Shown here: piece by piece, positions 25,954 to 47,878 of the stretch
How positions within the stretch are numbered: the stretch's first letter is position 1
Layout: each line of letters opens with the position of its first letter
NCBI GenBank assembly: GCA_964384595.1
Contig: CAYLLY010000004.1
Location: 1 to 63,772, forward strand
Direction of reading: 5' to 3'
Origin: an uncultured Nitrospirales bacterium
GTDB taxonomy: Bacteria > Nitrospirota > Nitrospiria > Nitrospirales > NS-4
Length of the DNA: 63,772 bases
The notes under the pieces: model-generated
The model's database searches: none
The model's input: the letters and a program-made list of their open reading frames with translations, nothing else
Told to the model about the DNA's origin: nothing
Made by a program: the position numbers and the translations under genes

Positions 25954-25955
25954 GG

Positions 25956-31831: not shown

Positions 31832-32014
31832 CTACTCCGTGGTCTTTTCGATGCGCTGCTCGCGAGTGATATCCTTCGGCTCATAGACACCGGGAGCGTA
31901 CGAATAAAACGACTCGATGAGCCGGCTCAACCCCATGGCCGCCAGCGCGGCCAGCACGCTGAATACCACCACGAGCCCCCAGAACTTCACGGGCGATGGC
32001 TTTCTCCAAGGCAT
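31832..32014 (-). CDS. Small single-TM protein (60 aa)
   Basis: KFWGLVVVFSVLAALAAMGLSRL TM segment followed by a charged tail; weak SD. Confidence 0.5.
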   Translation of the reverse strand: MPWRKPSPVKFWGLVVVFSVLAALAAMGLSRLIESFYSYAPGVYEPKDITREQRIEKTTE

Positions 32015-32212
32015 CGTTATGGCCACACGAGAAAGGGAGCTTTGGCGGCCATGACTGTAGCGGCCACAAAGAGGCAGTGGGACAGCGACAACGCATCGGC
32101 GGGAACGTGATGGACATCCTGCAGCCGGTCCTTCATACGCATACGTGCCTAGGGAATGCCTCCAGAGCACAGTACGACGGAGTGGCCGGAAGGTCAAGGG
32201 GATCGAACTCCC

Positions 32213-33316
32213 TCATCGTCTGCGACCCACCTTGCGCAGCAGTGCCACGACGCGCCCGGCGGTCAGCTCGAGCGTGAACGCCTCGGCCCGCGCGAGTCCT
32301 TGCCGCCGCATATGCTCGCGCATGTCCGACTGAGAGAGCGCCCTAGTCATGGCTTCCGCTATCGCGGAAACGTTTTCCGGATCAAACAAAACCGCCGCAT
32401 CCCCGACCACTTCCGGGATCGCGGCCCGATTCGACGCCGCAACCGGCGTGCCACAAGCCATCGCCTCCAATGCCGGAAGACCAAACCCTTCTTCACAAGA
32501 CGGAAGGACGAACAGGGCGCATCCGCTGTAGACAGCCGGCAGGTGCGCATCTTCGATCAAACCCGGAAAAAGAACGCGATCGGCTACGCCCAGGCGTCGG
32601 GCCAGGCATTCAAGGTCGTTCCGGTGCTCCCGATCACCTCCGGCGAGTACCAGTTGGTGCGTGCCCTTGAGCTCCTTGTCGAGACACGCATACGCCTGAA
32701 TCAGCCGTGGAACGTTTTTGTGGGGAAGGAAATTCCCGACAAAGAGGATGTAGGGCGGAACAATCCCGTATCGTTTCGTCACCTCGTCGGTCAGGGCTTC
32801 CCGCTTGAATTCGGCCCCGAGCGCGACCGGGATGACGGTCACTTTGGCCGCGCGCACGCCGAGCATTTCCACAATGGCCCGTTTCGTATATTCCGAATCC
32901 GCAATGACGGCGTCGGCCCGCGCCGCATACAATCGCGCCAGGTGGGTCATGACGGCAACGTAAACCGGACGCCCATCTCCAGGGTAGCGGATAAAGAAGA
33001 GGTCGTGGACCGTGATGACGACGGGACAGGGAGCCATCAGCGGGCATTTGTAGTAGGGCGAAAGAAAAACCGAAATCCGGTCTTGAACAAGACGGCGCGG
33101 AAGACTGAATTGATCGACCCATGGTGTCCAGGCGCCGGGCAGGCGGCGACCGCTCACCCCCGGCAACCTGACGGGAAGGCTGGTTGTCTCATCTCCGTAG
33201 ACGAGGCACTCGAGACCTTCATTCGCCGCCGCGCGCAACACCTCAACCAGGTAGCGGCCGATCCCGGTTCGCCTGCCGCTGACCAGTTCGCGGCCGTCCA
33301 CGCCGATCCGCATCAT
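32213..33316 (-). CDS. Glycosyltransferase family 4
   Basis: RIGVD.R.L....TGIGRY, HKN, EEGFGLPALEAMACG. Confidence 0.92.
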   Translation of the reverse strand: MMRIGVDGRELVSGRRTGIGRYLVEVLRAAANEGLECLVYGDETTSLPVRLPGVSGRRLPGAWTPWVDQFSLPRRLVQDRISVFLSPYYKCPLMAPCPVVITVHDLFFIRYPGDGRPVYVAVMTHLARLYAARADAVIADSEYTKRAIVEMLGVRAAKVTVIPVALGAEFKREALTDEVTKRYGIVPPYILFVGNFLPHKNVPRLIQAYACLDKELKGTHQLVLAGGDREHRNDLECLARRLGVADRVLFPGLIEDAHLPAVYSGCALFVLPSCEEGFGLPALEAMACGTPVAASNRAAIPEVVGDAAVLFDPENVSAIAEAMTRALSQSDMREHMRRQGLARAEAFTLELTAGRVVALLRKVGRRR

Positions 33317-34626
33317 GCGCGGGACGGGTCCGAAATCGGAGGTTTGCGCGCCTTGAAAATCATTTCGCAGAACCCGACGTACTGACAGTCCACAATCTCA
33401 TACCCTTGCGCGAGAAGCCGTCCCGCCAAGTCATCCCGGTCATAATGGGTGATATGCTCATGCGCATAGGCGCCCGGCAGCACTTTCCCATAGACCCACT
33501 CGATGGCCCACCAAAGCCAGCGGCCGTAGTCCGGTGTCCCCACAATCAATGTTCCCCCTGGCCGTAGGACACGCCACATCTCCGTCCAGATCTCAGACGA
33601 ATCAGGCACATGCTCGATTACTTCCGAATTGATGACCGTGGAGAAGGCGGCATCGTGGAAGGGCAGGGAGTCGCAGCTCCCTCGAACCAACAGGTTATGG
33701 CACGGTTTCAGCCAGCGCAACTTGTTCTGGAGGATGTCCAGTCCGACCGCGGCGGGCAGATCCAGGATGATCCGGCTGGACCCGCAGCCGATGTCCAGTA
33801 CATCCTTCCGGCCGTCCAGGTAGCCGAGGACGATCCGATGCCGCGTCTGTTGCCAGTACCGCTGGAGCCAGATCGGGCTGTCGAATGCACGGTAGTCGTA
33901 ATCGGCCGACTCCACGGAGTTCCGCAGCCTCCACATCCGCACCAGCGTCTTCAGGAACGCCAGGCCGAACTTGAAAAGCCGCACGTGCGAACTGCCGGAG
34001 CCTCGCGCCATGTAATGGAACGGCACTTCGAGTATCCGCCACCCCTCCGCATGTACGCGAATCAGTACCTCCTCCAATATGTCGAAGTCTTGTGCTGCCA
34101 GCGCCATTCCCGCTAACACTTCACGGCGATACATGCGAAACCCGCTGGACAAATCGCGTATCGGCAATGACAGAACCCGGCCGTAGGTCCGGTTCAAAAT
34201 ATGGCTCAGCAGCCTCCGGAACCACCCCATGTCGGCCCGCCCCCCGGGCACGTAACGCGATGCGATCAAGACCTCGGCCTCATCCCGACGTCGCCAGAAT
34301 TCTTCCAGGAAGACCGGACGGTGTGACAGGTCGGCATCCATCGTGACAATGTAGGGCGCGGCGGTGGCGGCAAAACCCGCCCGGAGCGCTCCGCCATACC
34401 CGGGCTCTGTTTGGAGGATCACGCGTGCCCCTCGTTTTTCGGCGGCGTCACGCGTTCCATCTCGGGACCCGCCATCGACCACAACGATTTCCGCCGTGAT
34501 TCCCATCCCGACGACCACTTCCTTGAGCGCCGGAAGCAAGAGGTCGAGGTTTTCCTTTTCGTTCAAGGCCGGGATCACGATCGCGATCTCGGGCGCGCGT
34601 GCCGTCTGATCGGCCGGACGTGTCAT
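33313..34626 (-). CDS. Polyprenol-phosphate glycosyltransferase (GT2, DPM-like) fused to a class I SAM methyltransferase
   Basis: IPALNE, VDGGS.DGT, GYG.A...GF, MDADLSH, ASRY..GG, SGFR.YRR, then LDIGCGS, SEVIEH and HITHY. Confidence 0.88.
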   Translation of the reverse strand: MTRPADQTARAPEIAIVIPALNEKENLDLLLPALKEVVVGMGITAEIVVVDGGSRDGTRDAAEKRGARVILQTEPGYGGALRAGFAATAAPYIVTMDADLSHRPVFLEEFWRRRDEAEVLIASRYVPGGRADMGWFRRLLSHILNRTYGRVLSLPIRDLSSGFRMYRREVLAGMALAAQDFDILEEVLIRVHAEGWRILEVPFHYMARGSGSSHVRLFKFGLAFLKTLVRMWRLRNSVESADYDYRAFDSPIWLQRYWQQTRHRIVLGYLDGRKDVLDIGCGSSRIILDLPAAVGLDILQNKLRWLKPCHNLLVRGSCDSLPFHDAAFSTVINSEVIEHVPDSSEIWTEMWRVLRPGGTLIVGTPDYGRWLWWAIEWVYGKVLPGAYAHEHITHYDRDDLAGRLLAQGYEIVDCQYVGFCEMIFKARKPPISDPSRA

Positions 34627-36815
34627 GCGTCAACTCGCGCTGAAGCGCGGAGACGCCCGACAAGAATCCACGCCAGACCTGCCACGCCCACAAGCTTGCC
34701 CGCCGCCAGCAACGACAGCGCCCCCTGGTGAAACGCCGGAAACTGCTCCAACGAATAGCGACTCCCCAGCAGCAGAATGGCCGCAACCAGCACGACGAGG
34801 TCCCTGGCCCGCATCCGCTCGATGGAGTCGCTCAACAACAGGAGCATCAGCGGCAGGAGGAGGATGACCAGGTGATGTTCCTCCGTCACCGGAGACAGCA
34901 GGAGGACCGCGCACAACCCTAACCCCCAGGTCCAGTCGAGCGTGGACAAGTCCGACGTCGGTGTTCTGGGCATAGCCCGCGCGAACACGCCCAGGAACAG
35001 GGCATCCAGCGCCAGCGTCAGTCCATCTGCGAGCAGCCGGCCGTCGCCTGGGGCGGCTAGCAACCGGTGAACCGTCCCGCGTGGCGAAATATTTGCGGTC
35101 CAGGTGGCCAGATAATCCGGCAAGGCCGTCACGTACCGGACATACTCAACATGGTGCGACGGACCCAGCGCAAGGACGCCCACACTCAGACCGAGCGCGG
35201 CGAGAGCCAGCGCCCGGAAACTGACCTGACGATATCCGATCCACCAGAGCAGCGGGAGCAGGAGCGCATACTGAATCTTGCTATGGACAACCACCGCTAT
35301 CGCCACAGCCGACATCCACGGCCGTTCCGAGCGCAGCCCCCACCACACCACCGTCAGCAGCAACAACAGCCAGATGTTGGATTGCCCCAGCGCCAGGCTT
35401 TCCATCAGCGGCTGATAATTCAGCATCACGAACAGTGCCACGGCCACCTGGGTCGGCGACGCCTCCCCGTACCGATGGATGCAGAGCCAGAGCACGAGCA
35501 CAAGGCACGCCTGGCTTGCGAGCAACCACCCGATCGCCGCGGCGCGAAACGGGAGATAGACCCATGGCTGCATGAACAGATAGAACAGCGGCGGGTAATT
35601 GGCCGCGGCGCCGGCCCGCCGAAGATTGAGCATTGCGTCGACCGCCCCCACAGCCTGAGGATCAAACGGATTCATGCCGAGCGAGACGACGGTGGCATAC
35701 GTATAATAGTGGGCAAAATCGATGAAGGGGGCCTCGACCACAAGCTTGACGAGATCGTGGCCATACCGGAACAGGCTGAACACGACGACGACCGCCAGCA
35801 GCAACAGAAACGCGTGAGTCCCCGAACGCGCCGAGCGCTCGGCCGTCTGAGGTACAATCGCCCGAACCGCTTCAAGGCAGGCGGCACATGCGGAGGCCCG
35901 GTTCAGCAACGCTTCCTCGCGCTGCGAGAGCAGCCACGACGCCACGCGATACAAAAGGCGACGGATTTCCAACTCCCGTAAGGCGATCCAGCGGGCCATC
36001 GATCCGCCCCACACGGGAAAATGCTTGTCGAAGTACAGAATCCGGCTCTTGTACGCTTCGCAGAGCATCCGCTCCGGAACCTGCTCCGTACTCTTCCCCC
36101 AACTATGTATGACGGACGGTTCTGCCAGGTACCGCACCCGGCACCCTGCCTCCCCGATTCGCTTGCACAGGTCCACGTCCTCACTGTACATAAAAAACCG
36201 CTCGTCGAACCCTCCACACGACAGGAAGAGGTCCCGCCGAACCAGCATGCACATCCCTCCTCCCCATGCCACATCACGTGTGCGCAGATGCGCCTTCAGG
36301 GTCGCGCGCAGCAGCCAACGATGGAGCGCCGGGCGACGGTACACGGCATACCGCAGAGAAGAGAGAAAGAACAGGTCGCCGAGCTGGGACCAGGGAGACG
36401 GGAACGACTCGTGCACGGACGGCTGCAGGGAGCCGTCCGGGTTCAGAATTCGGCACAGGACCATTCCGATTGCGGGGTCTCGATCCAGTTCGGCAACCAT
36501 GGAAGGAAGTGAACCGGGCTGCAATTCACAGTCGCTGCCAAGAATCAACAAGGTCCTGCCCCGGCTGACCTTCGCTCCGATATTGCTGGCCCGTCCGAAG
36601 CCGACGTTTTCACCGTTTTGAACTATCCGCACGTGGGGAAACTCCTCGGCCAGCATCGCCTGGGTCCCGTCAGTCGAGCCGTTGTCAACTACGACGATCT
36701 CGAAGGTCCGCTTCTCAGCCGCTCCGGGGACGGCGCGAAGGCATCTGGCCAGGTAGTCCCGCGTGTTCCAACTGACGATGAGGATCGAAATATCTGGAAT
36801 GGGGTCGCGCGTCAT
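34623..36815 (-). CDS. GT2 glycosyltransferase fused to a GT87/DUF2029-like GT-C membrane domain
   Basis: N-terminal IVSWN, VDNGSTDG, N.GFG..N, FDERFFMYSEDVD; C-terminal DF..YY.......G.NP, NYPPLF, GQSN with many TMs. One continuous frame. Confidence 0.85.
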   Translation of the reverse strand: MTRDPIPDISILIVSWNTRDYLARCLRAVPGAAEKRTFEIVVVDNGSTDGTQAMLAEEFPHVRIVQNGENVGFGRASNIGAKVSRGRTLLILGSDCELQPGSLPSMVAELDRDPAIGMVLCRILNPDGSLQPSVHESFPSPWSQLGDLFFLSSLRYAVYRRPALHRWLLRATLKAHLRTRDVAWGGGMCMLVRRDLFLSCGGFDERFFMYSEDVDLCKRIGEAGCRVRYLAEPSVIHSWGKSTEQVPERMLCEAYKSRILYFDKHFPVWGGSMARWIALRELEIRRLLYRVASWLLSQREEALLNRASACAACLEAVRAIVPQTAERSARSGTHAFLLLLAVVVVFSLFRYGHDLVKLVVEAPFIDFAHYYTYATVVSLGMNPFDPQAVGAVDAMLNLRRAGAAANYPPLFYLFMQPWVYLPFRAAAIGWLLASQACLVLVLWLCIHRYGEASPTQVAVALFVMLNYQPLMESLALGQSNIWLLLLLTVVWWGLRSERPWMSAVAIAVVVHSKIQYALLLPLLWWIGYRQVSFRALALAALGLSVGVLALGPSHHVEYVRYVTALPDYLATWTANISPRGTVHRLLAAPGDGRLLADGLTLALDALFLGVFARAMPRTPTSDLSTLDWTWGLGLCAVLLLSPVTEEHHLVILLLPLMLLLLSDSIERMRARDLVVLVAAILLLGSRYSLEQFPAFHQGALSLLAAGKLVGVAGLAWILVGRLRASARVDA

Positions 36816-36857
36816 CAGCGATTCCAATCGGACTGGGTCCCCGGTCCGCAGCGAGCC

Positions 36858-37976
36858 TCAGAGAGACACGATTTGTTCATAGACCTCCAACGTGCGCGCA
36901 ACGTAGCGTTCGATGGTGAACTCAGCCTGGACTCTGGCAACGCCGCGTTGCCCAAACCTCGCACGCAGCCCAGAATCCGCGATCAGTTTTCCAACCGCAT
37001 GTGCCAGCGCATCCGGGTCGCGCGGAGGGACCAGCAGCCCCTCTTGCCCCTCCCGGACGATCTCCGGCGTGCCGCCGGTATTCGTCGCCACAACGGCGGT
37101 ACCCGACGCCATCGCCTCGAACAGGACCCTGCCGCAGGGCTCCGCCTCGGAGGCCAAGACCAGGATGTCGAGGCCACGCATGACCCCAGGGATATCGCGG
37201 CGGAAGCCCACGAAACGAATCCGGTCATCGAAGCCCGTCTCCTTCACCCGACGGCGGAGCGCGTCGGCGCGCCACGCATCTTCGGGGAAGAGCGTATCGC
37301 CGATGATGAAAAACCGTGCGGCGCAGCCTCCCGTCAGCAGGCGGACCGCGGCCTCGACGAACACGTCATGCCCCTTGCCCAGACCGATCCGCCCAACCAT
37401 CCCCACGGCGGGGGCCTCGTCCGGCACTCCCATTTCCAGCCGGATCGGCTCACGCGACTGTCCAGGATGAAATTCCCGTGTGTCCACGGCATTGAGGATT
37501 GTCACCGACTTGTCCCACGCCGAGCTTCCACGAAAGCGTTCCCTGATCGCGTCGGAATTGCAGATGATTCGCGCCGGCAGCCACGAGAAGGCCCGGTCCA
37601 CATCCCACATATCGCCATAAAGGAGATTCCGCATATGCCAGACGGCGGGCACACCGGTCAACCTGCCGGCTAGTCCCGCGCAGACATTCGTCTGCGGGCC
37701 GTTGGCATGGAGCAGGTCGATTCGCTGCTCCAGAATCAGGTCCCGCAGCCGCCGTACCGACCTGATCACTCCCACGATGCTGCGCAATGGACCGAATGGG
37801 GCTGCGAAAACCGGTATCCCCTCACGTGCCAGGGCTTCCGGAAAGGGCCCGGACTGTGGCCCCCCGAACAGAGGCGTTACCCGCGCTCGATCAAGGTGGC
37901 GACACAAGAGCAACAGGCTGTTTTCAGCCCCGCTCAGTTGCTCCACGTGATGGAGGTAGAGCACCCTAATGGCCAT
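36858..37976 (-). CDS. Glycosyltransferase family 4
   Basis: SGAENSL, GRI..GKG, EPCGRVLFEAMA. Confidence 0.9.
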   Translation of the reverse strand: MAIRVLYLHHVEQLSGAENSLLLLCRHLDRARVTPLFGGPQSGPFPEALAREGIPVFAAPFGPLRSIVGVIRSVRRLRDLILEQRIDLLHANGPQTNVCAGLAGRLTGVPAVWHMRNLLYGDMWDVDRAFSWLPARIICNSDAIRERFRGSSAWDKSVTILNAVDTREFHPGQSREPIRLEMGVPDEAPAVGMVGRIGLGKGHDVFVEAAVRLLTGGCAARFFIIGDTLFPEDAWRADALRRRVKETGFDDRIRFVGFRRDIPGVMRGLDILVLASEAEPCGRVLFEAMASGTAVVATNTGGTPEIVREGQEGLLVPPRDPDALAHAVGKLIADSGLRARFGQRGVARVQAEFTIERYVARTLEVYEQIVSL

Positions 37977-39147
37977 GTGCCTGCGTCTCGGCCGCACGCG
38001 TGAGAACCGCTTCGTATTGCTCCGCAATCCGGTCCCAATCAAACAGGGCCTCAGCGCGTGCACGACCGCTCTCGCCCAGACGGCGACGCAGCGCTTCATC
38101 GCGCGCCAGCGTGATCATCGCCTCCCCCATCGCTCGCCAATCCCCTGTCTCCACCAGCACGCCCGCCTCGCCGAGTACCTCCGGCAGCGCGGTGCTTCGC
38201 ACCGTCACGACAGCCAGACCATAGCTCATGGCCTGCGCGACAACAAGCCCGAAGGTCTCAAAGGTGGAATGGAATACAAATACATCAGAGGCCAGAAAAT
38301 ACGATCCGAGCTTCTCAGACGGGATATAGCCGACAAAATGGACCTGCTTCTCTATTCCGAGTTCTACGGCCAGCGCGCGTAGCTTCCCTTCGTCGGGCCC
38401 CTTTCCACCGATCAGCAAGACGCCGGCATGCCCCCCGTCAAGGTAATGCCGCATCGCGTGTAGCATAGTCCCCACTCCTTTCTCCGGCACGAGCCGCTGA
38501 AGGGCGAAAAACAGCCGTTCTCCTTGCGGGATGCCCAGTGATCGCCGAAGCGCGGCCCCTTCTCCAGGCGGCGGAGGAATCTGCACGCCATTGTAAACCA
38601 CCTGGCCCCGCACGGTACCGTGCCCATACAGGGCCGTCTGGCAGTATTTCGACACATAGGTGACATCGCAGACAAGGGCCAAGAGTGCCCGCTGCCACCA
38701 CCGCCACAGAGCCGGCACTCCCGGCCCGGGCACGTCACGTCCGTTTAACGTCACAACCGTGGGAATTCCCAAGACCCTCTCCGACCACACGCCAGCCAGG
38801 CCGGTCGGCATCACATAGTGCACGTTCAGGACATCCGGACAAAACCTCCGGGCGGCATACCGGACCGCGCCGACGGCCGACAGGGAAAAAGGCGGGATCG
38901 CGCCTCCGGTCAACCGGTGGCCGGGAATCCGCATGAAGGAGATACGGTCATGGTAGCGCTCCACGGGAAACGAAACCAGGGCCTCATACTCCTTGCCGGC
39001 CTGGTCGCGCACCAATGCCGGGTCAAGATGGGGCGTCACAAGCAGGACTTCATGGCGCGTGGCCAATCTTCGGTAGACTTCGAAAAGGACCATCTCGGCG
39101 CCCCCGACTACGGGGAGAAACGTTGGGGTCAGGACCAGGATCTTCAC
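37966..39147 (-). CDS. Glycosyltransferase family 4
   Basis: FLP.VGGAE, RLVPEKG, ETFGLVVAQAM; GTGA overlap. Confidence 0.9.
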   Translation of the reverse strand: MKILVLTPTFLPVVGGAEMVLFEVYRRLATRHEVLLVTPHLDPALVRDQAGKEYEALVSFPVERYHDRISFMRIPGHRLTGGAIPPFSLSAVGAVRYAARRFCPDVLNVHYVMPTGLAGVWSERVLGIPTVVTLNGRDVPGPGVPALWRWWQRALLALVCDVTYVSKYCQTALYGHGTVRGQVVYNGVQIPPPPGEGAALRRSLGIPQGERLFFALQRLVPEKGVGTMLHAMRHYLDGGHAGVLLIGGKGPDEGKLRALAVELGIEKQVHFVGYIPSEKLGSYFLASDVFVFHSTFETFGLVVAQAMSYGLAVVTVRSTALPEVLGEAGVLVETGDWRAMGEAMITLARDEALRRRLGESGRARAEALFDWDRIAEQYEAVLTRAAETQAHGH

Positions 39148-40280
39148 CGTCGCAGCACCCGGGCGTACAGATTGCGCGTCTCCTGCGCGATGACGGACCA
39201 CGAAAATCGGGCGGCCACGGCCAGCGCCGCCTTGCCCAAGCAGGCAGCCTCCTCGGGTTTGGCCAACAGGGAGGCGATCCGGGATGCCAGGGCGACGGCG
39301 TCCTTCGGGGGGACGAGCGCAATGTTGTCACCATCCCGGAGATAGGCAGAGGGCAGGGTTGAAACGGTGCTGACGACGGGACGCCCGTGTGCCAGGCCTG
39401 CCATCAAACTCCCCCGGCGAATGGAGACCCCGTCGTCGTATGGAACGACGAAGATGTCGGCGGCATTCAGGATGAGCGACACCTCTTCGCCGGGCCGGCG
39501 GCCCAGCCAGATGATGGCCGAAGCGACTCCGAGGCGCCCTGCCAACGCCTTGAGGTATTCCATGTACCAGATATTTTCCGGTCTGTTATCTCCAACGATC
39601 GCAAGTCTTACTTGAGGTTGTACGCGAAGAAGTTCGGCAAGCGCCGCAAACAGCGTCTCCAGACCCTTGCCCGGGTAGATTAACCCGAAGTGGACGAGGA
39701 CCGGCCCCTCTTGGGGAAGACCAAGCGTCGCCCGCGATACCCTCTGCATCCCGGCCGGCTTCGTCGGAATATTCGCGCCGATCGGTATTTCCGTGCAGCG
39801 GCCGGCGAACGAGGGAAGCCGTCGGCGAATCAATGCGCTGACCTCCTCGTTCGCGCTGATGCTCCACCAGGCCGACAGAAGGAGCAACGGCGCCACGACT
39901 CGTGACCGCAGGGAACCGCCGACCAGCGTGTGGAATGTGATCACCACCGGCGGGCCCGACCTGATCCGTGCGAGCAACGGCACGAACTTGAAGCCCAGCC
40001 CCTGCCCATACAGATCGGGAGTGTATTGCAGATGAATCAGGTCGACGGGCGGGCTGATCGCGGACGACGTGAGCCGCAACGCCTCGCCGACCGTCCACGC
40101 CCGCACCCGGGGCAGCACCGCGACGGGACCGCCGGTCTCTCCACGGTAGCGATCCGACGTCAGCACGACCACGTCTTCGCCCTGACCGGCCAATTCCTCC
40201 GCAAGACAGCGCGTATAATCACCGACACCGCAGGTGACATCTTGAGGGGGATATGACGGGCACACCATCAGAATCCGCAT
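39144..40280 (-). CDS. Glycosyltransferase family 4
   Basis: CGVGDYT..L, FGLIYPGKG, PYDDGVS.RRGSLMAGLAHG.P. Confidence 0.88.
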   Translation of the reverse strand: MRILMVCPSYPPQDVTCGVGDYTRCLAEELAGQGEDVVVLTSDRYRGETGGPVAVLPRVRAWTVGEALRLTSSAISPPVDLIHLQYTPDLYGQGLGFKFVPLLARIRSGPPVVITFHTLVGGSLRSRVVAPLLLLSAWWSISANEEVSALIRRRLPSFAGRCTEIPIGANIPTKPAGMQRVSRATLGLPQEGPVLVHFGLIYPGKGLETLFAALAELLRVQPQVRLAIVGDNRPENIWYMEYLKALAGRLGVASAIIWLGRRPGEEVSLILNAADIFVVPYDDGVSIRRGSLMAGLAHGRPVVSTVSTLPSAYLRDGDNIALVPPKDAVALASRIASLLAKPEEAACLGKAALAVAARFSWSVIAQETRNLYARVLRR

Positions 40281-40281
40281 G

Positions 40282-41727
40282 TCACTGTTCGATCCTCTTC
40301 ATCTCTTTTTTCCACAATCGGAGAAGAAGCCAGGCGATCCCGCCCAGAACAAGCAGATTCGCGCCGAGCAGCAGGAGCTGGTTTCCGGCCAGCCGCGCCC
40401 CTTCGGCAGTCGGCAACAGGCGCAAGAGGTCGCCGGCGTTGACATCCGGGCGGCTCACCACCGTGTGCAGCGTCTCCACTCCCAACCACTGCGGCAATGC
40501 CTCCTTAAACACGACGCCCATGCCGGTACCGGACAGCCACGTTTTCACGGCATAGGGAAACGGGTTTGCGGTCGGGATAATGCCGGCTTGCGCGCTCAGG
40601 TAACCGCACAGAACCGAGGGAATTCCAGCCGCAAGGAGCAGGTTTCTGCTCATACGGTCCATGACAGGAGCGGCAAAGGCGGCCAGCAACGGAACGGCCG
40701 GAAACATCATGCGCGGCCCGAGGCTGTGCGCCCAGGAGGCACGGTCGGCAAACTGGGACTGCCAGCCGGCGGCGGCAAGCCAAAGGCCGGCCAGAAAAAC
40801 AAACGCCACCATCGCCTCGCCGGACTTCCCTGTCCGCCATGCGGCACCCAGGCCGGCCACTGCAAGGAGAAGGAACGGGGCATAGAGGAACAAGCCCCCC
40901 CGCGGCCCTGCCAAAAGGTCTAGAAGAATCGCACCCTTGGGAAAAACGAACCCCAGATTGGAAAGGCCGGTGACAAAGTAATATCCGGTCAACCACGGTT
41001 GCCCGAACAGCCACGTGTTGTACGCGCCAAGCGCAAAGACGAGCGGAGCGCAACCCGCAAGAAACGCCCCGGCCTGCTTGACGCCCTCCCGCTTTCCCAC
41101 CAGCAGCGACAACAACGGAATGAGCAGACCGGCCGGGTATGTCACCGCCGTCGCCACGCCACACATCGCGCCTGAGGCCAACCGGCGCCAGTTTCCTCCC
41201 GGTTCCACGGCCAGCCGAACGGCCGTCAATACCGCCAACGCCGAAAGATTTTCTTTAAACAGGGTCGTTCCCAAAAAAAAGTCCTGTGTCCCGAACGCGA
41301 CGAGGGCGGCGGTCCACAACCGTCCCCGACGGGCCGCGCCCAGCCAGCCGGCCAGCCAGGCCGATTGGACCGCCACCAGCGCCGACGCCGTCGCACCCAC
41401 TGTGAGCGCCAGAGCCCCATTGAGCGCCTGGAATGCATCCATGGTGTCCGCCGGCCCCACCAGAAAGCGCCATCCCAGATAGAACGGCATGATCAACACT
41501 GCCGTTCCCGGCGGCTCGGCCGACACCAACCGTCCGTGAGCCATCGCCGTGTCCTTGCCCTCATATAACCGGGGGTGGGCCATTTCCCAGCGGCCTGTAT
41601 CCACGAAAGATACCGCCACATCCAAAAAATTAAACGTCATTGAAGACTGCAACCAGGGATTCCAGAACGCCGCATACACCAGCCATGCGGTCAGAAAGAT
41701 GCGGGCAGCGTCGGTCTGAATGCTCAT
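40282..41727 (-). CDS. Polytopic GT-C-fold-like membrane protein
   Basis: About 12 TMs; the N-terminal periplasmic loop has KD.A..HG..VS..PPG; GL..Y.P and GPR motifs near the C-terminus. Confidence 0.65.
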   Translation of the reverse strand: MSIQTDAARIFLTAWLVYAAFWNPWLQSSMTFNFLDVAVSFVDTGRWEMAHPRLYEGKDTAMAHGRLVSAEPPGTAVLIMPFYLGWRFLVGPADTMDAFQALNGALALTVGATASALVAVQSAWLAGWLGAARRGRLWTAALVAFGTQDFFLGTTLFKENLSALAVLTAVRLAVEPGGNWRRLASGAMCGVATAVTYPAGLLIPLLSLLVGKREGVKQAGAFLAGCAPLVFALGAYNTWLFGQPWLTGYYFVTGLSNLGFVFPKGAILLDLLAGPRGGLFLYAPFLLLAVAGLGAAWRTGKSGEAMVAFVFLAGLWLAAAGWQSQFADRASWAHSLGPRMMFPAVPLLAAFAAPVMDRMSRNLLLAAGIPSVLCGYLSAQAGIIPTANPFPYAVKTWLSGTGMGVVFKEALPQWLGVETLHTVVSRPDVNAGDLLRLLPTAEGARLAGNQLLLLGANLLVLGGIAWLLLRLWKKEMKRIEQ

Positions 41728-42989
41728 GGCGTGGCGTTCGATCCCGACGGACGAACCACACGAAAGGCGAGCGCGGCCAGAATCATCAGGCCGTAGGTCT
41801 TGATCCCGCCCAGAAGAACCGCGGGCCCCGTCGCAATGAGCGGATGCGCATAGTAGTCATCGATGCCGCCGATCAGGAGCACGGCGACGGCGATCCACGG
41901 AATCAGCGCGACCTGCCGGTGGGGTCCCAGGGCCCGCTCGAGCAGGACCGCCAGCGGGATGAACGTGAACACCAAATGGTTGATCGTCGTGTTCGGCGTC
42001 GCGAGGAGAAGCGCCGCGGAGAGGAACGCGATCTCCGCAACCATCCGGCCGGGAGCGACCTGCCCCGTCGGACGGAGAACGGCAAACGCCGCCGCCAGCA
42101 ATCCGAACGAGGCCGCCTGCCCGATGAATCGCCAGAAATCGGCCGGAACGGCATCCAAGAGGCCCGCGCCGGTGTTTATCATCAGGCCCGATAGTGAATG
42201 ATTCCCTAATCCGGCAAAGGCCCGGGCATACTGGGGAGCCACCAGAGTTGCATACTGAACAGTGGCATCCCACCCCGCCAAAGGGAGGGCGATCAGCGTA
42301 CAGGCCATCGCCGTGCCCGCACCCCACGCACAGGCCCGCCATTCCTTCCGCCAGGCAAGATACAGAATGAACAAAGCGGGATGGACACGAAGCGCCGCAG
42401 CGAGGCCGATTGCGACTCCGGCCATGGCGGGACGCCCCGCGCGAAGAGCCGCTAAAAACAGGCCGGTGAGGGCCAGAATCAGCAGGTTGATTTGACCGAG
42501 CCCCAAGGAATTCTCCAAGGGTTCAGACACGAGGGCGACACTCACGAGGACGAGTCCGGCTTCAAGCGACAACGGGACCGCCCGCCAGAGGCACCAGCCG
42601 GCCACGGCAAGGAATCCGAGGCTCAGCGTTTGCCAGAGCACGGCGGCAGGCTGAAACGAAAGCGCCGTGAACGGACTAAACGCCAAGACCGTAAATGGAG
42701 GATAGGAGAATGCGTGGATGTGAACGAAATCATCGTGCGCATGGAGCGTGCCCAGACGCTTCGCCGCCTCAATCAAGACCGCGTTGCGATTCAACCCGGT
42801 TTCGCGATCCAACTGCGGATCATAGAACTCGCCGCCGAAGCGAAAAACATGCGCCGCCGTGTAGACGGCCGCGAAGTCTCGATGTTCTCCCTTGCGGGCA
42901 AGCTGAAGCATGTGGACGGCAAACTGCCCGGTGAGAACCGTGAGCACCACCACCAGCGCGAGGGCGCCACGCGAAACCGGCTGGCTCAC
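41724..42989 (-). CDS. GT87/DUF2029 family GT-C glycosyltransferase
   Basis: RDF...Y.AA.....G..YD, FSYPPF, GQIN, NHS; polytopic. Confidence 0.82.
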   Translation of the reverse strand: MSQPVSRGALALVVVLTVLTGQFAVHMLQLARKGEHRDFAAVYTAAHVFRFGGEFYDPQLDRETGLNRNAVLIEAAKRLGTLHAHDDFVHIHAFSYPPFTVLAFSPFTALSFQPAAVLWQTLSLGFLAVAGWCLWRAVPLSLEAGLVLVSVALVSEPLENSLGLGQINLLILALTGLFLAALRAGRPAMAGVAIGLAAALRVHPALFILYLAWRKEWRACAWGAGTAMACTLIALPLAGWDATVQYATLVAPQYARAFAGLGNHSLSGLMINTGAGLLDAVPADFWRFIGQAASFGLLAAAFAVLRPTGQVAPGRMVAEIAFLSAALLLATPNTTINHLVFTFIPLAVLLERALGPHRQVALIPWIAVAVLLIGGIDDYYAHPLIATGPAVLLGGIKTYGLMILAALAFRVVRPSGSNATP

Positions 42990-44116
42990 CGACGCTGTTC
43001 CATCGCAAAAGTATACACGCGAAGGGTTCGGACTCCTGCGGCCGCCATGCTTTCGCGTACCGCATAGGTTTGAGCGGCAGCGGCAAGCCGTGCACGGGCT
43101 TGCGCATCCGCCAACAACCGCGCGAGGGTCTCACGGAGCGCAGCCGGATCGGCCGACGGAACCAAGGCGAGACAGGAGCCTCTGGCCTGGACCTCACGCA
43201 CCGTGGGCAGATCAGTCGCCACGACAGGACGCCCCTGGCCCAACGCCCGGTGCAAGGAGTAGGACATGCTGCTGTCTGTGGCATACGGAACGACCACCAC
43301 ATCCATGGCTTCCAGCGCAATCGGGACCTCGGCGGGTTCAAGGTAACCGGTCACAACCAGGCGATCACTGATGCCATACCGCGCAGCCGCCTCTGCCAAA
43401 TCCCTTCGCATCGTCTCGTGGGCGGGAAGTCTCGGGCCTCCGGCCAGCAGGAGAACTGCTCTGCTCGGGAGCGATGCGACGGCTTCCATCAGGTCGGAAA
43501 ACCGTTTCGAGCCCTCCAGAAATCCCAGCACCCCTACCGTCTGGCTGCCGGAGGGAATGCCAACGCGGGCGCGGAAGGCATCGACCTCACCGACTTGCAC
43601 CGGGACACGCGAAGGAATGCCGGGGGAGACGACGTGGATTCGATCCGGGGGAAGGCCACGCGCCACTAGACGCTGTTTATGGAAATCCGCATGGACGATG
43701 ACGGCGTCGGCCCGACGAAAGGTTTCGACATCGATCCAGGCGGGGGCGCCCGCCGCATTCGCAAGCCGACTACCCAGGCCGCCGTCGAGACGAGCCGGCC
43801 CTTGGTCCCGAACCGTGTGCGCGGTGAGGACCATCGGCGTCCGGATGCAGGCGAAGAGGATCCGGATCAACAGTGTATAGGTCAGCTGATCGATCCCCCA
43901 AAAACTATATGTATGCTGAATATGAGCGACATCCTGACGGCTGAGGCGCAGGCCGGCAAATACCGGCCGCAGGGGATTGAGGTTGGCGGCGCAGAGCGGA
44001 ATGGTCGTGATGTCCGCGTGCACGGCAAGAGTACTGATCAACTCCCGGGTGTAGTCCGCAATACCACATCGGGGCCCGACGGTGGCATACATCCCGACAC
44101 GGAGCCGATCGCTCAT
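42986..44116 (-). CDS. Glycosyltransferase family 4
   Basis: CGIADYT, GFL...KR, VPY....S.SL..ALG.G.PV. Confidence 0.88.
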   Translation of the reverse strand: MSDRLRVGMYATVGPRCGIADYTRELISTLAVHADITTIPLCAANLNPLRPVFAGLRLSRQDVAHIQHTYSFWGIDQLTYTLLIRILFACIRTPMVLTAHTVRDQGPARLDGGLGSRLANAAGAPAWIDVETFRRADAVIVHADFHKQRLVARGLPPDRIHVVSPGIPSRVPVQVGEVDAFRARVGIPSGSQTVGVLGFLEGSKRFSDLMEAVASLPSRAVLLLAGGPRLPAHETMRRDLAEAAARYGISDRLVVTGYLEPAEVPIALEAMDVVVVPYATDSSMSYSLHRALGQGRPVVATDLPTVREVQARGSCLALVPSADPAALRETLARLLADAQARARLAAAAQTYAVRESMAAAGVRTLRVYTFAMEQRR

Positions 44117-45240
44117 TTTACCAATCCCTTGGCCTCCAGTTCAGCCTTGGCCTGGTCGACACAGTCCACGGCATGCTGCGATTTAGCCCACGCCGCTAGG
44201 TCCAGGATGCCCGTCTCCAATTGAATGGCAGGCGCATACCCCAAGATACGCCTGATCAGCGTGATGTCTCCCACGCAGTGCCGGATATCTCCATCCCTGA
44301 ACTTCCCCACGATCTCAGGCGCGCACGGAACTCCCATTACCTCCCCAAGCAAACGCGCGACTGTCGCAATGGACGTGGCACACCCCGTTCCGACGTTCAG
44401 AGCGACATCGGCGACATCGTCCCGTTCCAGCGCCAGGCAAAAGGCCCGCACGATGTCCCGCACGTGAATAAAATCACGACTCTGGCCCCCATCTTCAAAA
44501 AGAAGGGGCCGTTGTCGGTTTAATAAACGAGAGGCAAAGATGGCGGCGGCGCCGGTGTACGGGTTGGACAGCGACTGCCGTGGCCCGTAGACATTGAATA
44601 AGCGCAACGCGACGGCGCCGATTCCATACGCCCGACCGACACTGAGGCACAACTCCTCCTGATCGCGCTTGGTGACGGCATAGACGGAGGTAGGGAAGAG
44701 GGGCTTTTCTTCGTCCGTTGGAACAGGCACGGCGGATTTTCCGCAGGCCGGGCATCGCATTTCCCAATCCCGGGCTTGAAGCTGGCCTGTCGAGCGCAGC
44801 CGCGGAGCGATGGGACCACACTGGGCACACCGGTAGCGCCCTTCTCCGTAAATGGACATGGAAGACGCCACCACGAGTCGCTTGACGCCATGCCCCCCGT
44901 TAACCATGACATCGAGGAGGGTCGCCGTCCCCAGCGCATTCGTTTCCACGTAGGGAGCAATGGCGTACATGGACTGCCCCACCCCAACCGCAGCCGCGAG
45001 ATGCACCACGGACCGCACCCCGTTGAGCGCCCGGTCAACCATCGCCCGGTCGGTGACCGATCCATGAAGAAATTCAACCCCGGGGGGAAGTAGCGAGGGA
45101 TGCGTGGCACCCGGTCCGTGAACCTGAGGGTCCAGATTATCCAACACCCGGACGGTCAGACCTTGAGCAAGCAGGGATTCAACCAGGTGGGAGCCTATGA
45201 ATCCAGCTCCACCCGTCACTAAAACAGGTTGCGGGATCAT
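44113..45240 (-). CDS. NAD-dependent epimerase/dehydratase (extended SDR, WbiB-like) with a CxxC..CxxC insert
   Basis: VTGGAGFIG, HLAAAVGVGQS, SSMSIYGEG, YAVTK, NVYGPRQSLSNPYTG, FRDGDIRH. Confidence 0.88.
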   Translation of the reverse strand: MIPQPVLVTGGAGFIGSHLVESLLAQGLTVRVLDNLDPQVHGPGATHPSLLPPGVEFLHGSVTDRAMVDRALNGVRSVVHLAAAVGVGQSMYAIAPYVETNALGTATLLDVMVNGGHGVKRLVVASSMSIYGEGRYRCAQCGPIAPRLRSTGQLQARDWEMRCPACGKSAVPVPTDEEKPLFPTSVYAVTKRDQEELCLSVGRAYGIGAVALRLFNVYGPRQSLSNPYTGAAAIFASRLLNRQRPLLFEDGGQSRDFIHVRDIVRAFCLALERDDVADVALNVGTGCATSIATVARLLGEVMGVPCAPEIVGKFRDGDIRHCVGDITLIRRILGYAPAIQLETGILDLAAWAKSQHAVDCVDQAKAELEAKGLVK

Positions 45241-46244
45241 GACGGGAACTCCTCTCTGGGGGGCGCGAACCGCTGGATCAACGTTTGATGATCGAGCACT
45301 TGCGTACGCTGAATTTCTCGTCGCGCCACCCATGTGTCCGGCAAGCGTATAAGATTGTATATGAACCCCAGCATCATCGCCAACGCCAGCTTCAGGTTGC
45401 GCCTGGTGACATGCCAGACAATGCGGGCCGACAGATGCGCGGCCAGGCGAGCCGCCGTCGTGAGGGGCAGGCATTTGATCGCGAAGCGCAGGAGGTTCGC
45501 ATGATAGCTGACCCGCCGATGAAACCAGAATTTTGGAATCTTCCCGGGTGCAACGCTCTGGATCAAATGATGGTGCTCGTCCCCCGACATGCCGACCTTG
45601 TGATACAGCCAAGCGTCAGGCACGTACACCGTCCGCCAGCCCCGGCGCCACGCGCGCCAGCACAAATCCGTGTCTTCAAAATCGATGAAAAATGTCGGGT
45701 CGAACCCACCGAGCGCCTCAAAGCGATCCCGCCGCACGAGCAAGCTCCCCGCGCATCCCCATGGAACCTCAACGGGCCCTGGGGCCGGCGCCGTGTATTC
45801 CGCTGCAAAGGGAGGGATGACGGTGCTCAAGTACCGGCCTGGAACCAACCGGGTCCGCCCATGAATAACCCGGGAGCCGTCCCAGGAAAGCTGCGTCGGA
45901 TCCACAGCAAAAAGCGAGGGGTCTTTTCCCAGAACATGCACCAGCCTGGACACACAGTCCGGCGGGAATTTCATGTCGTTGTTGACGATGAAAAGACAGT
46001 CCCCTGTGGCCTCCTTCGCCGCCAGGTTGTTGGCTCTGGAGAATCCCAGATTGCGGCCCAACGGCAGCCAACGAACATGGTATGACGCCGCCACGGACGC
46101 GCTGTCATCAATACTGCCATTATCCACGACGAGTATTTCGAGCGCAGGCCAGTCCTGCGCGCGAAGGCTGCTCAGGCAGTCCGGCAACAGATGCGCCCCA
46201 TTGTAGTTGAGGACGATCGCGGTGATGCGCGGGCTTTCCGTCAC
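45237..46244 (-). CDS. Glycosyltransferase family 2
   Basis: IVLNYNG, VDNGS.D, NLGF..ANN, NNDM, GFDP.FF..FED.DLCWR. Confidence 0.9.
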   Translation of the reverse strand: MTESPRITAIVLNYNGAHLLPDCLSSLRAQDWPALEILVVDNGSIDDSASVAASYHVRWLPLGRNLGFSRANNLAAKEATGDCLFIVNNDMKFPPDCVSRLVHVLGKDPSLFAVDPTQLSWDGSRVIHGRTRLVPGRYLSTVIPPFAAEYTAPAPGPVEVPWGCAGSLLVRRDRFEALGGFDPTFFIDFEDTDLCWRAWRRGWRTVYVPDAWLYHKVGMSGDEHHHLIQSVAPGKIPKFWFHRRVSYHANLLRFAIKCLPLTTAARLAAHLSARIVWHVTRRNLKLALAMMLGFIYNLIRLPDTWVARREIQRTQVLDHQTLIQRFAPPREEFPS

Positions 46245-46373
46245 GCCATGCACTCGATGGCCACAATGACGACGGACTGACTGCCACGCCTGGCAAGACA
46301 CTGCGAAGCCGGTCTCATCCCGCCTCTTTGCCCGGTCTGGCCGTTATCAGAATATCCATCGCCGACGGCAACT

Positions 46374-47201
46374 TCACTCCCCTCGAGCTGATTCGATGCC
46401 GCCTTCAACGCGAACAGCCCGGACCACGCAGGTATCGCGAAGCGACGGCCAGAGAATCCTGGCAGGCCAGAGCAGTGCGCGCAATACGCGTCGGATGAGC
46501 GAGATACCGACCGCCACTTGATCAATGAAGGTGCGCCGAACCACCTGGAACCCGGACGCTTCAAGAAGCGAGACCAGTTCGGCCATGGTGTAGAGCCGCA
46601 GGTGTCCATAGGTGCCGTCGATGACCCTCAAAGGACTTTGTTGGGGAGAATGGCCCCGCAGCAGGAGTTCCCGGTTGGTCCATGCCGCCAGGTTAGGGGT
46701 CGTCAGGACCAGCACCCCGTGCGGCGCCAGAATTCTACTGATTTCGGCCAAGGCTGTGGGAACTGCGTGGGGTGGAAGATGCTCGACAACTTCGGCAAAG
46801 ACAGCCACGTCGAAGGTCTGTGACCGGAACGGCAGGCCGGAGCCTACGAGATCGGCTGCGACCAACCGGATTCGCTCGTCGGTCAGCCGTGCGCGATACT
46901 CAGGCAGCCAGACATAGGGGCGCCGCGGATGCTCGACCCCGATCATCTCTGCTTTGGGGAACTGATGCCGGAGGGCACTGGCAAGGGTCAGGTAGCCGGT
47001 GCCGATCTCCAGCAGCCGACGCGGTTCCGGTCCGTCGTCGAGAAGAGCCACCGTCCGGGCGAGGCGAGAAGCCTCCTGCCGTATCAAGACTTCGACTCCA
47101 TGCGCCGCGCATGATTCGATTCCCCATCGATCCCAACCACGGAACATCTTGGTCAGTAAAGCGGCGATCGCGTTCTCGTCCATGCGTCCGCCGGCACTCA
47201 T
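46374..47201 (-). CDS. Class I SAM-dependent methyltransferase
   Basis: LLEIGTG, FAEVVEHL, LVLTTPN, HLRLYT; ATGA overlap (alternative start 47183). Confidence 0.85.
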   Translation of the reverse strand: MSAGGRMDENAIAALLTKMFRGWDRWGIESCAAHGVEVLIRQEASRLARTVALLDDGPEPRRLLEIGTGYLTLASALRHQFPKAEMIGVEHPRRPYVWLPEYRARLTDERIRLVAADLVGSGLPFRSQTFDVAVFAEVVEHLPPHAVPTALAEISRILAPHGVLVLTTPNLAAWTNRELLLRGHSPQQSPLRVIDGTYGHLRLYTMAELVSLLEASGFQVVRRTFIDQVAVGISLIRRVLRALLWPARILWPSLRDTCVVRAVRVEGGIESARGE

Positions 47202-47878
47202 ACTTTGGTCGCGAGCACGGCCCACCCTACCGCATCGCGAATGCCGGCTCGACTCCCGTGCCCGCAGACCCACCCATCCAGCCAGTCGAACAGCCGATAG
47301 GCAAGCGCCACAAAGACCAGCCGTGTCTTCGGCGGGAGGTTCCACTCGATCGCGTGAAAGACGACGAGAAAGGGTCCGCCCGTCGGGCGGATATCCTGAA
47401 TGTGCAACCCGGCCTCCTTGCAGAGATAACGGAGTCCTTCATGAGTGTACCGATAGAAGTCCCCCGGATGATCATGGAGAATACAGTATTGGGGCGTCGT
47501 TAAACAGAGATACCCTCCCGGCCGCAGCACCCTCGCGCATTCCAGAAGCAGGAGAAGGGGGGCCGGCACGTGCTCCAAGGTTTCCATCAACAGAACCACG
47601 TCTGCAATTTTCTCCTGGAAAGGGAGATGGTGCCCATCGGCCAGGATATCGACGCCACGGCCCGGCTTGATCTCGATCGCAACCCGCTTTCCCTTCCACA
47701 GATCCCCGAATTGAAAAGGTTCAAAGCCGGCGCCCAGGTCTAAGAGGAGTCGTGTCGCTTCGGTGCGCTCGGTGATCAAGCCGAGCATTCGCCGCGCATG
47801 CTGAATCGGATGGTCTGTTCCCCGGCGTACCCATCGGTGGTGGTACCGCAGATATGTCGCTTTCAGCCAACTAAGCAC
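47198..47878 (-). CDS. Class I SAM-dependent methyltransferase
   Basis: LLDLGAG, ADGH.LPF, ETLEHV, HD.PGDFYRYT. Confidence 0.85.
   Translation of the reverse strand: MLSWLKATYLRYHHRWVRRGTDHPIQHARRMLGLITERTEATRLLLDLGAGFEPFQFGDLWKGKRVAIEIKPGRGVDILADGHHLPFQEKIADVVLLMETLEHVPAPLLLLLECARVLRPGGYLCLTTPQYCILHDHPGDFYRYTHEGLRYLCKEAGLHIQDIRPTGGPFLVVFHAIEWNLPPKTRLVFVALAYRLFDWLDGWVCGHGSRAGIRDAVGWAVLATKV

Follow-up and report, generated by a model that had tools for sequence, protein, structure and literature searches.

Organisation of the exopolysaccharide locus

We analysed a 63,772-nucleotide stretch of DNA from an uncultured Nitrospirales bacterium (contig CAYLLY010000004.1; hereafter, the window) and examined a candidate periplasmic glycosylation module at 33313-47878, in which a predicted lipid-linked sugar donor synthase fused to a methyltransferase is encoded together with three predicted glycosyltransferases (GTs) of the GT-C type. 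The gene classes were assigned by Pfam and NCBIfam scans of the window open reading frames (ORFs). The minus strand carries one long gene run with a GC content of approximately 62%. The module belongs to an exopolysaccharide (EPS) locus of 25 genes, including Wza, Wzc, Wzy, and Wzx, which spans approximately 22.4-53.8 kb and extends beyond 33313-47878. The gene inventory of an earlier interpretation made from the DNA letters alone (the sequence-only reading) was borne out, with all of its genes located on the minus strand at or near the positions proposed there.

Read 5' to 3' on the minus strand, the locus starts with a Wza-like outer membrane polysaccharide export (OPX) protein, a Wzc-like polysaccharide co-polymerase (PCP) with a tyrosine kinase, a Wzy_C protein, and Wzx. 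These genes are followed by an upstream modification block (two class I methyltransferases, a GT2, an NAD-epimerase/dehydratase, and a GT4), a variable GT-C cassette (a standalone GT87 and a 481-aa membrane protein), and a conserved core composed of three GT4s, a 734-aa GT2-GT87 fusion, a 437-aa GT2-methyltransferase fusion, and a GT4. The downstream block encodes an AsnB-type amidotransferase, two GT4s, PHP/CehA-like and WbqC-like proteins, PIG-L, DegT, and a WecA/MraY-family protein. A Wzx/Wzy-dependent, Wzc/Wza-exported pathway is complete in this one locus, with an initiating phosphoglycosyltransferase, Wzx, Wzy, a kinase-type PCP-2a, and an OPX protein. Housekeeping genes flank the locus, with ComEC, GlmM, FtsH, Hpt, and TilS at one end and MetH, OtsA/B, and an ABC permease at the other end.

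The segment 33313-47878 contains four GT4 genes and one standalone GT2 gene. Most of the junctions show 4-nt start/stop overlaps (33316/33313, 34626/34623, 39147/39144, 41727/41724, 42989/42986, 44116/44113, 45240/45237, and 47201/47198), which indicates that the neighbouring genes are translationally coupled. The synthase fusion and the three GT-C proteins are as follows.

33313-34626, minus strand: fusion of a DPM1/DPMS-like GT2 and a class I S-adenosylmethionine (SAM) methyltransferase, 437 aa (Pfam, PDB, and NCBIfam comparison)
34623-36827, minus strand: GT2-GT87 fusion, 734 aa (Pfam, PDB profile match)
40282-41727, minus strand: polytopic membrane protein with a predicted GT-C fold, 481 aa (AlphaFold and Foldseek)
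41724-42989, minus strand: standalone GT87 GT-C glycosyltransferase, PimE-like (Pfam, PimE match, NCBIfam)

The putative synthase-methyltransferase fusion and the three predicted GT-C proteins

The 437-aa protein (hereafter, DPM-MTase) matched Glycos_transf_2 at residues 16-171 (3.6e-24) and Methyltransf_11/23 at residues 254-412 in Pfam, and its DPM1-like domain spans residues ~12-235. The closest solved relatives of the GT2 domain were the Pyrococcus DPMS (PfDPMS, 5mlz; 3.4e-24, residues 12-233), ArnC, and GtrB. The top NCBIfam matches were AglJ, Dol-P hexose transferase, ArnC, and PpgS, all of which were below the curated cut-offs. The DAD metal/donor motif is present and invariant, with 97-DADLSH-102 aligned to 89-DADLQH-94 of PfDPMS. 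R124, R137, and S141 correspond to R117, R131, and S135, the lipid-phosphate site among the residues with known roles in PfDPMS (PMC5526996), and are invariant in 36 homologues, as are the gate residue F181 (F177 in PfDPMS) and the A-loop residue R208 (R202). These relatives and invariant residues strengthened the DPM-like call that the sequence-only reading had made for 33313-34626. By its sequence, DPM-MTase has the features of a polyprenyl-phosphate-monosaccharide synthase (DPM1/GtrB/ArnC type) and is likely a candidate polyprenyl-phosphate-hexose synthase/methylase.

No transmembrane (TM) helix was predicted in DPM-MTase, the C-terminus of which is the methyltransferase, and the DPM1-type catalytic domain appears to be membrane-peripheral. 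PfDPMS without its TM domain remains membrane-targeted and active (PMC5526996), and human DPM1 likewise has no TM helix. In a low-confidence AlphaFold2 (AF2) model, predicted helices at 135-152 and 213-235 coincide in position with the interface helices (IFH1 and IFH2). In the C-terminal half, the SAM motifs are intact (VLDIGCG, the acidic residue ending strand 2, and LRPGG), and this half is conserved as strongly as the GT half. The best 120 database clusters of the family are all at least 72% identical, and the named members belong to Nitrospirae, Methylomirabilota, and Pyrinomonadaceae.

The 734-aa protein matched GT2 at residues 14-254 (3.7e-26) and GT87 at residues 411-646 (66.1 bits against the PF09594 cut-off of 25) in Pfam. 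It consists of a cytoplasmic WbbL/chondroitin-synthase-type GT2 (residues 1-~300), a TM helix (335-353), and a GT87 GT-C domain (~355-734). The GT2 half was rejected as a donor synthase: its best relatives were chondroitin synthase, ppGalNAc-T, and MftF- and EpsD-type enzymes, and DPMS was matched at just 1.3e-4. These relatives indicate that the fused GT2 is an ordinary cytoplasmic transferase, and only the 33313 protein appears to be DPM-like. JGI names the homologues of the fusion WbbL-type rhamnosyltransferases. An exact-protein look-up of the 734-aa sequence gave no match, the gene callers choosing a later start.

The profile of the fused GT87 domain matched PimE (9dm5) at 9.7e-14. Residues Y92, Q163, K195, H321, and H322 of PimE correspond to Y411, Q482, K517, H651, and H652 of the fusion, which are invariant or near-invariant in the family; W319 of PimE was not conserved in the GT87 comparison. 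An invariant D-F-A-x-Y-Y motif after TM1 (D370 in the fusion and D38 in the standalone GT87) sits where PimE has the catalytic D58 and Y62, an equivalence based only on motif and position because the hidden Markov model (HMM) alignment to PimE starts at residue 89. The fused GT2 is necessarily cytoplasmic and is followed by one TM helix and then by the D370 loop, which argues for a periplasmic GT-C active site.

The standalone GT87 scored 121.6 bits in Pfam (5.6e-35; PF09594 cut-off, 25), 1.3e-6 against PimE (9dm5), and 7.7e-15 against the NCBIfam mannosyltransferase model PRK13375. It keeps Y96 and the Q and H of the PimE-type residues, and R replaces K195. The standalone and fused GT87 domains share 29% identity over 197 aligned residues, including the DF..Y, YPP, and GQxN motifs.

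The 481-aa protein had no match in the Pfam or PDB sequence searches, and a weak match to LA_3751/LA_3752 was its sole NCBIfam match. Its AlphaFold model, built with 39 homologues, reached a pLDDT of 92 and a pTM of 0.92. The top 25 Foldseek matches of this model in the PDB were all GT-C enzymes, with probabilities of ~1 and query-normalised TM-scores of 0.29-0.50, and included ArnT (7.8e-5), Pmt4, ALG9, ALG3, PimE, DPY19, PglB, ALG6, Emb, and AftD. Assignment of the family as a divergent GT87 was rejected, since hhalign against GT87 gave a probability of 2%. The best 120 homologues are all annotated as hypothetical, and none has a Pfam domain. Because the confident model matches only GT-C enzymes and Pfam has no match, we assigned the 481-aa protein to what is predicted to be a separate, uncurated GT-C family absent from Pfam.

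A library-wide profile search with the 481-aa family found 6,724 distant relatives. Ten of these were scanned: eight had no Pfam match, one matched PMT_2, and one was fused to a methyltransferase. The last protein (P0387, 887 aa) combines a relative of the 481-aa GT-C (residues 19-484) with a C-terminal class I methyltransferase (635-813), and by its sequence it appears to be a second, independent link of GT-C enzymes with methylation. All three GT-C assignments of the sequence-only reading have thus held, two by HMM with PimE-type residues and one by structure.

Conservation of the locus and its other genes

We mapped the window proteins by local phmmer/hmmsearch onto 40 fetched loci (labelled L001-L040). 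The same gene arrangement is present in over 20 independent contigs belonging to two phyla, and it is therefore not attributable to chance. The 20-gene order from GT2 and the epimerase through to PIG-L, DegT, and WecA is preserved in the Rokubacteria loci and largely preserved in the Nitrospirae loci, with an invariant core consisting of three GT4s, GT2-GT87, DPM-MTase, and the following GT4. The locus is thus syntenic across Nitrospirota and Methylomirabilota/Rokubacteria and is not hypervariable. Approximately 90 fused GT2-GT87 clusters were found in Nitrospirota and Rokubacteria/Methylomirabilota, and in a scan of species-representative genomes the fusion occurred only in Nitrospirota and in Rokubacteria/Methylomirabilota metagenome-assembled genomes. 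Searches of the literature on Nitrospira with GT87, DUF2029, GT2/GT-C fusions, or synthase-methyltransferase fusions yielded no description of the locus or of the fusions.

The standalone GT87 and the 481-aa GT-C vary independently in otherwise syntenic loci: L003 has neither, L004, L007, L009, and L010 have the standalone GT87 only, and L023 has the 481-aa protein only. The 481-aa gene is tandemly duplicated in L001/L002 (476 and 484 aa). In this independent presence and absence, the two genes behave as a variable cassette within an otherwise conserved gene order. The fusion-type GT87 occurs as a separate protein in L019, L020, L022, and L031.

Homologues of DPM-MTase in other phyla (72-78% identity) directly adjoin GT-C genes of other families. 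A divergent GT87 lies beside DPM-MTase in L033, L034, and L040, and in L039 the neighbours are a PMT/PMT_2 protein and a second GT-C-like protein with a DE motif. The recurring partner of DPM-MTase is thus a GT-C of whatever family, as would be expected of a donor synthase.

Several features of the related loci were observed in addition. In L033, L034, and L040, which are of Acidobacteriota type, DPM-MTase is 75-78% identical and has an epimerase and a very divergent GT87 as its neighbours, and the synthase is far more conserved than every neighbouring gene; L033 and L034 also carry NodU/CmcH-type carbamoyltransferases. In L001/L002, the fusion protein of which is 77% identical, toxin-antitoxin genes lie between the glycosyltransferase genes (two PhdYeFM/ParE pairs and a lone PhdYeFM antitoxin; e.g., L001 5460-5714, 14804-15338, and 19625-20229). 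The sequence words of the window are fully present in a hot-spring metagenome run, and identical genes occur on JGI/ENA contigs. Among the sequencing runs matching the window, only DNA metagenomes and no RNA run were found.

The other genes of the locus are as follows.

52989-53843, minus strand: Wza/OPX-like polysaccharide export protein (NCBIfam)
50829-52976, minus strand: Wzc-like PCP-2a co-polymerase with a tyrosine autokinase domain (Pfam, NCBIfam)
49324-50754, minus strand: Wzy_C-domain polymerase (or ligase)-like membrane protein (Pfam)
47897-49312, minus strand: Wzx/MOP-family flippase (Pfam Polysacc_synt/MurJ, NCBIfam)
47198-47878, minus strand: class I SAM methyltransferase, Methyltransf_11 (Pfam)
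46374-47201, minus strand: class I SAM methyltransferase, Methyltransf_23 (Pfam); the ORF extends to 47345, and the likely start is the ATG at 47201, which overlaps the upstream stop
45237-46301, minus strand: GT2, rhamnosyltransferase/EpsD-like (Pfam, NCBIfam)
44113-45240, minus strand: NAD-dependent sugar epimerase/dehydratase, GalE/LegB-like (Pfam, NCBIfam); translation probably begins at the ATG at 45240 and not where the 499-aa ORF starts
42986-44116, minus strand: GT4 (f) (Pfam)
39144-40280, minus strand: GT4 (e) (Pfam, synteny)
37966-39147, minus strand: GT4 (d) (Pfam, start choice, synteny)
36858-37976, minus strand: GT4 (c) of the conserved core of three GT4s (Pfam, start choice, synteny)
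32213-33316, minus strand: GT4 (b), directly downstream of DPM-MTase and conserved (Pfam, synteny)
29915-31801, minus strand: AsnB-type glutamine amidotransferase, XrtA/PEP-CTERM-like below the cut-off (Pfam, NCBIfam)
28692-29939 and ~27478-28650, minus strand: two more GT4 genes (Pfam, NCBIfam)
22409-27584, minus strand: conserved 3' block with a secreted PHP/CehA-like metallohydrolase, a WbqC-like protein, a PIG-L deacetylase, a DegT aminotransferase, and a WecA/MraY-family phosphoglycosyltransferase (NCBIfam, Pfam, synteny)
23581-22409, minus strand: the WecA/MraY-family initiating transferase of this block (NCBIfam)

The AsnB-type protein probably catalyses a sugar-acid amidation step. Membership of the XrtA/PEP-CTERM group of EPS loci was not supported, since AsnB, Wzc, and Wza matched the XrtA-type models only below the cut-off and the window yielded no identifiable exosortase gene. 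The PHP/CehA-like metallohydrolase (25956-27584, minus strand) has a signal-like segment at its N-terminus and an internal hydrophobic stretch and keeps the same position in nearly all related loci, which bears out its proposed co-occurrence with the module. This protein could serve as a phosphoesterase in the periplasm, with the polymer or the carrier lipid as its substrate, and not as a CpsB-like cytoplasmic phosphatase. The sole sizeable intergenic gap within the locus, 412 bp, separates AsnB from the GT4 gene; it contains a doubtful 121-aa ORF with one hydrophobic segment (31832-32197, minus strand), and on the identical contigs L035-L037 the gene callers placed ORFs of 39-60 aa in this gap.

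Directly upstream of Wza, the minus strand carries an HD_5/HD-GYP-like protein (53840-54874) and an ExeA-like AAA_22 ATPase (54881-55723). A 510-aa ORF (20132-21664, minus strand) contains a complete 2-dehydropantoate reductase (PanE/ApbA, residues 25-364), and its C-terminal residues 414-498 match a portion of the catalytic subunit of SoxC/SorT sulfite dehydrogenase; the ORF may contain a gene remnant or may have been joined in error. A trehalose module upstream (3360-8223), which comprises a GH15/trehalase-like protein, an OtsA-like GT20 (745 aa with a long N-terminal extension), and an OtsB phosphatase, is unrelated to the EPS finding.

Proposed periplasmic decoration and its alternatives

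We propose that the locus encodes a multi-GT-C version of three-component periplasmic glycosylation, built into a conserved Wzx/Wzy/Wzc/Wza EPS pathway of a diderm Nitrospirota. In this scheme, a WecA-type enzyme would prime undecaprenyl phosphate, and the GT4 enzymes and two ordinary GT2 domains, one of which is the N-terminal half of the fusion, would build a large undecaprenyl-diphosphate (Und-PP)-linked repeat unit in the cytoplasm, the sugars being modified by AsnB, DegT, PIG-L, WbqC, and the two free methyltransferases. The DPM1-like domain would load polyprenyl phosphate with a hexose, most likely mannose, and the fused methyltransferase would O-methylate the lipid-linked sugar while it is still in the cytoplasm. 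SAM is not known to occur in the periplasm, and methylation of a sugar that is added there would have to precede flipping; the fusion of the synthase to the methyltransferase suggests such a step. Lipid-phosphate-linked sugars are modified before flipping in other systems, namely by ArnD deformylation and by mycobacterial DPR epimerisation. A Clostridioides difficile GT2-Methyltransf_11 (PF08241) fusion has been proposed both to add a sugar and to methylate that sugar (PMC5207246).

A flippase would then move the lipid-linked donor across the membrane, and Wzx would flip the repeat unit. The three GT-Cs, with their active-site loops in the periplasm, would transfer the donor sugar onto the flipped Und-PP repeat unit or the growing polymer before polymerisation by Wzy, followed by export through Wzc/Wza. 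The fusion and DPM-MTase would form a fixed core, and the other two GT-Cs would change the decoration between lineages. The sequence-only reading had placed decoration after export; this timing should be corrected, as decoration would follow flipping and precede Wza export, on the periplasmic side of the inner membrane.

We estimate the probability of this reading at approximately 60%. The enzyme classes, the topology logic, the conservation, and the gene linkage, as drawn from the sequences and predicted structures, support it, and from them we infer the donor sugar, the acceptor, and the methylation step.

Several observations weigh against this reading. The whole window contained no GtrA/SMR-like small multi-TM gene and no second MOP/MATE gene, which agrees with the earlier remark that a GtrA-like flippase was missing. 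The enzyme roles are predictions from sequences and models. K178, which contacts the mannosyl O4/O6 and a phosphoester oxygen in PfDPMS (PMC5526996), aligns with an invariant D182 in the DPM-MTase family; the sugar therefore need not be mannose, and the acceptor chemistry may also differ. The DPM1-like GT2 subfamily shows a weaker similarity to the soluble GpgS enzymes, and the AF2 model of DPM-MTase, built on a shallow alignment of sequences that are all at least 72% identical, is too weak (pLDDT, 67; pTM, 0.47) for inter-domain geometry. Among the related loci, L020, L022, and L031 have a GT87 without DPM-MTase, and L038 has no adjacent GT-C near its DPM-MTase homologue. GT9 heptosyltransferase-like genes adjoin the DPM-MTase/GT87 pair in L003, L033, and L034, which hints at lipopolysaccharide (LPS) core as the acceptor in some lineages.

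With respect to the flippase, no ORF of at most 300 aa with at least three TM segments was found in or near the locus, and the Pfam lists of the related loci examined contained no GtrA/SMR or second MOP/MATE gene. Two small ORFs beyond the locus end were rejected as GtrA-like proteins, one with four TM segments (14998-15381, ~7 kb away) and one with three (16956-17360, ~5 kb away), neither of which has a Pfam match. The single Wzx is the only flippase candidate in the locus, and we found no evidence for the suggestion that the GT-C at 40282 serves as the flippase.

Three alternative explanations were considered. In the first, the acceptor of the GT-Cs and DPM-MTase is not the locus polysaccharide; they would serve protein O-glycosylation, as the actinobacterial Ppm1/Pmt enzymes do, or decorate LPS core or lipid A, as ArnC/ArnT and RgtE/RgtA-D do, and would merely be co-located with the EPS genes. 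The GT9 neighbours described above and the PMT-family GT-C beside DPM-MTase in L039 are consistent with this explanation, as are the nearest folds to the 481-aa GT-C, ArnT and Pmt4, which act on lipid A and in protein O-mannosylation, respectively. However, the GT-C genes of the window are interleaved and translationally coupled with the repeat-unit GT4/GT2 genes in an order maintained across two phyla, one GT87 forms a single protein with a GT2 of the repeat-unit type, and no GT9 gene lies within the window; we therefore consider a different acceptor unlikely.

It is similarly improbable that DPM-MTase is an ordinary cytoplasmic transferase acting on the Und-PP repeat unit, with the donor of the GT-Cs supplied by a synthase encoded elsewhere. 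The replacement of K178 by Asp, the sub-cut-off NCBIfam matches, the lack of a TM helix, and the precedent of a GT2 + PF08241 enzyme acting on a glycan acceptor (the C. difficile flagellin GT2) would fit such a role. However, human DPM1 and truncated PfDPMS function without a TM domain, all of the best relatives of the 437-aa protein are lipid-phosphate glycosyltransferases, and GT-C neighbours of several families recur in different phyla.

GT87-related enzymes take part in mannan biogenesis, and MptA, MptB, and MptC build mycobacterial lipomannan. An MptA/MptB/MptC-like explanation, in which the GT-Cs build a mannan-like and possibly methylated periplasmic homo-oligomer or polymer on a lipid-linked primer made by the GT4s, is very unlikely: the gene content (several GT4s, a DPM1-like synthase, and several GT87s) resembles the logic of phosphatidylinositol mannoside/lipomannan synthesis and the characterised GT87 enzymes act in mannan biogenesis (PMC12041525), but the full Wzx/Wzy/Wzc/Wza set argues for repeat-unit polymerisation and related loci can do without the two accessory GT-Cs.

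The preferred reading, decoration of an EPS repeat unit by GT-Cs supplied with a lipid-linked donor, can be compared with known systems. Three-component periplasmic glycosylation is an established paradigm, and the pentofuranose system of Citrobacter youngae uses a GT136 GT-C and a MATE flippase (PMC11127046). The GtrA/GtrB/Gtr* systems of Salmonella and Shigella O antigens and the C. youngae system likewise pair a cytoplasmic polyprenyl-phosphate synthase with a periplasmic GT-C tied to a Wzx/Wzy glycan. In contrast to these systems, the present locus has no GtrA/SMR or dedicated MATE flippase gene, has three GT-Cs, drawn from two or three families, where those systems have a single GT-C, and encodes a synthase that is without TM helices and fused to a methyltransferase, with one GT-C fused to a cytoplasmic GT-A. 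Moreover, the Gtr genes are a serotype-converting add-on, whereas those described here form the conserved core of a cross-phylum EPS locus.

The mycobacterial Ppm1/PimE system resembles this locus in its TM-less DPM1-type domain, its GT87 with PimE residues, its GT4 steps followed by GT-C steps, and the lack of a recognised donor flippase. It differs in that the host here is a diderm Nitrospirota and not an actinobacterium, the acceptor is presumably an Und-PP EPS unit and not phosphatidylinositol, and the synthase is joined to a methyltransferase, whereas Ppm1 is fused to or paired with an Lnt-like membrane domain; the identity to PimE is low. The rhizobial bactoprenyl-phosphate-galacturonic acid synthase RgtE with RgtA-D/F, and ArnC/ArnT, are Gram-negative pairings of a lipid-phosphate-sugar synthase with periplasmic GT-Cs. 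One synthase serves several GT-Cs in the RgtE system, as proposed here, and ArnT has the closest solved fold to the 481-aa protein, but these systems decorate lipid A or LPS core outside a Wzy locus and without a methyltransferase or a GT-A/GT-C fusion. The type B flagellin GT2 of C. difficile (PF00535 + PF08241) likewise joins a GT2 to a methyltransferase and has been proposed to methylate the sugar that it adds; in contrast to DPM-MTase, it belongs to a soluble protein-glycan pathway with a glycan acceptor, and its GT2 is not DPM1-like.

These comparisons indicate that the locus is an unstudied variant of a known decoration mechanism and not a new kind of system. The gene observations of the sequence-only reading stand, and its term "new system" was too strong because the combination of a lipid-phosphate-sugar synthase and a GT-C is the three-component paradigm and the use of several GT-Cs has precedents in RgtE/RgtA-D/F and Ppm1/PimE/Mpt. 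The features that set the locus apart from these systems are the synthase-methyltransferase fusion, the GT-A/GT-C fusion, the predicted GT-C family outside Pfam, the lack of a recognisable donor flippase, and the conserved cross-phylum core. That DPM-MTase makes a methylated lipid-linked monosaccharide (polyprenyl-phosphate-O-methyl-hexose), which would be a new class of periplasmic glycosyl donor, is a tentative and rather doubtful suggestion.

Periplasmic glycosylation with lipid-phosphate-linked sugars is well known from O antigens, teichoic acids, and mycobacterial glycans, and there has been little study of it in EPS pathways or in environmental phyla. The present locus adds a fixed pairing of a donor synthase-methyltransferase fusion with GT-Cs, together with a GT-A/GT-C fusion that would work across both membrane faces. 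It supplies three concrete enzyme targets and suggests an annotation correction for thousands of proteins that are now named "glycosyltransferase" or "hypothetical". If the methylated donor is real, it would explain methyl groups on sugars added outside the cytoplasm, and many bacteria of soil, groundwater, and hot springs would share the mechanism, as the family extends across Nitrospirota, Methylomirabilota, and Acidobacteriota at an identity of at least 72% and has GT-C partners of several families. If the proposed chemistry is correct, nitrite oxidisers and their relatives would have a conserved, possibly methylated envelope polysaccharide.

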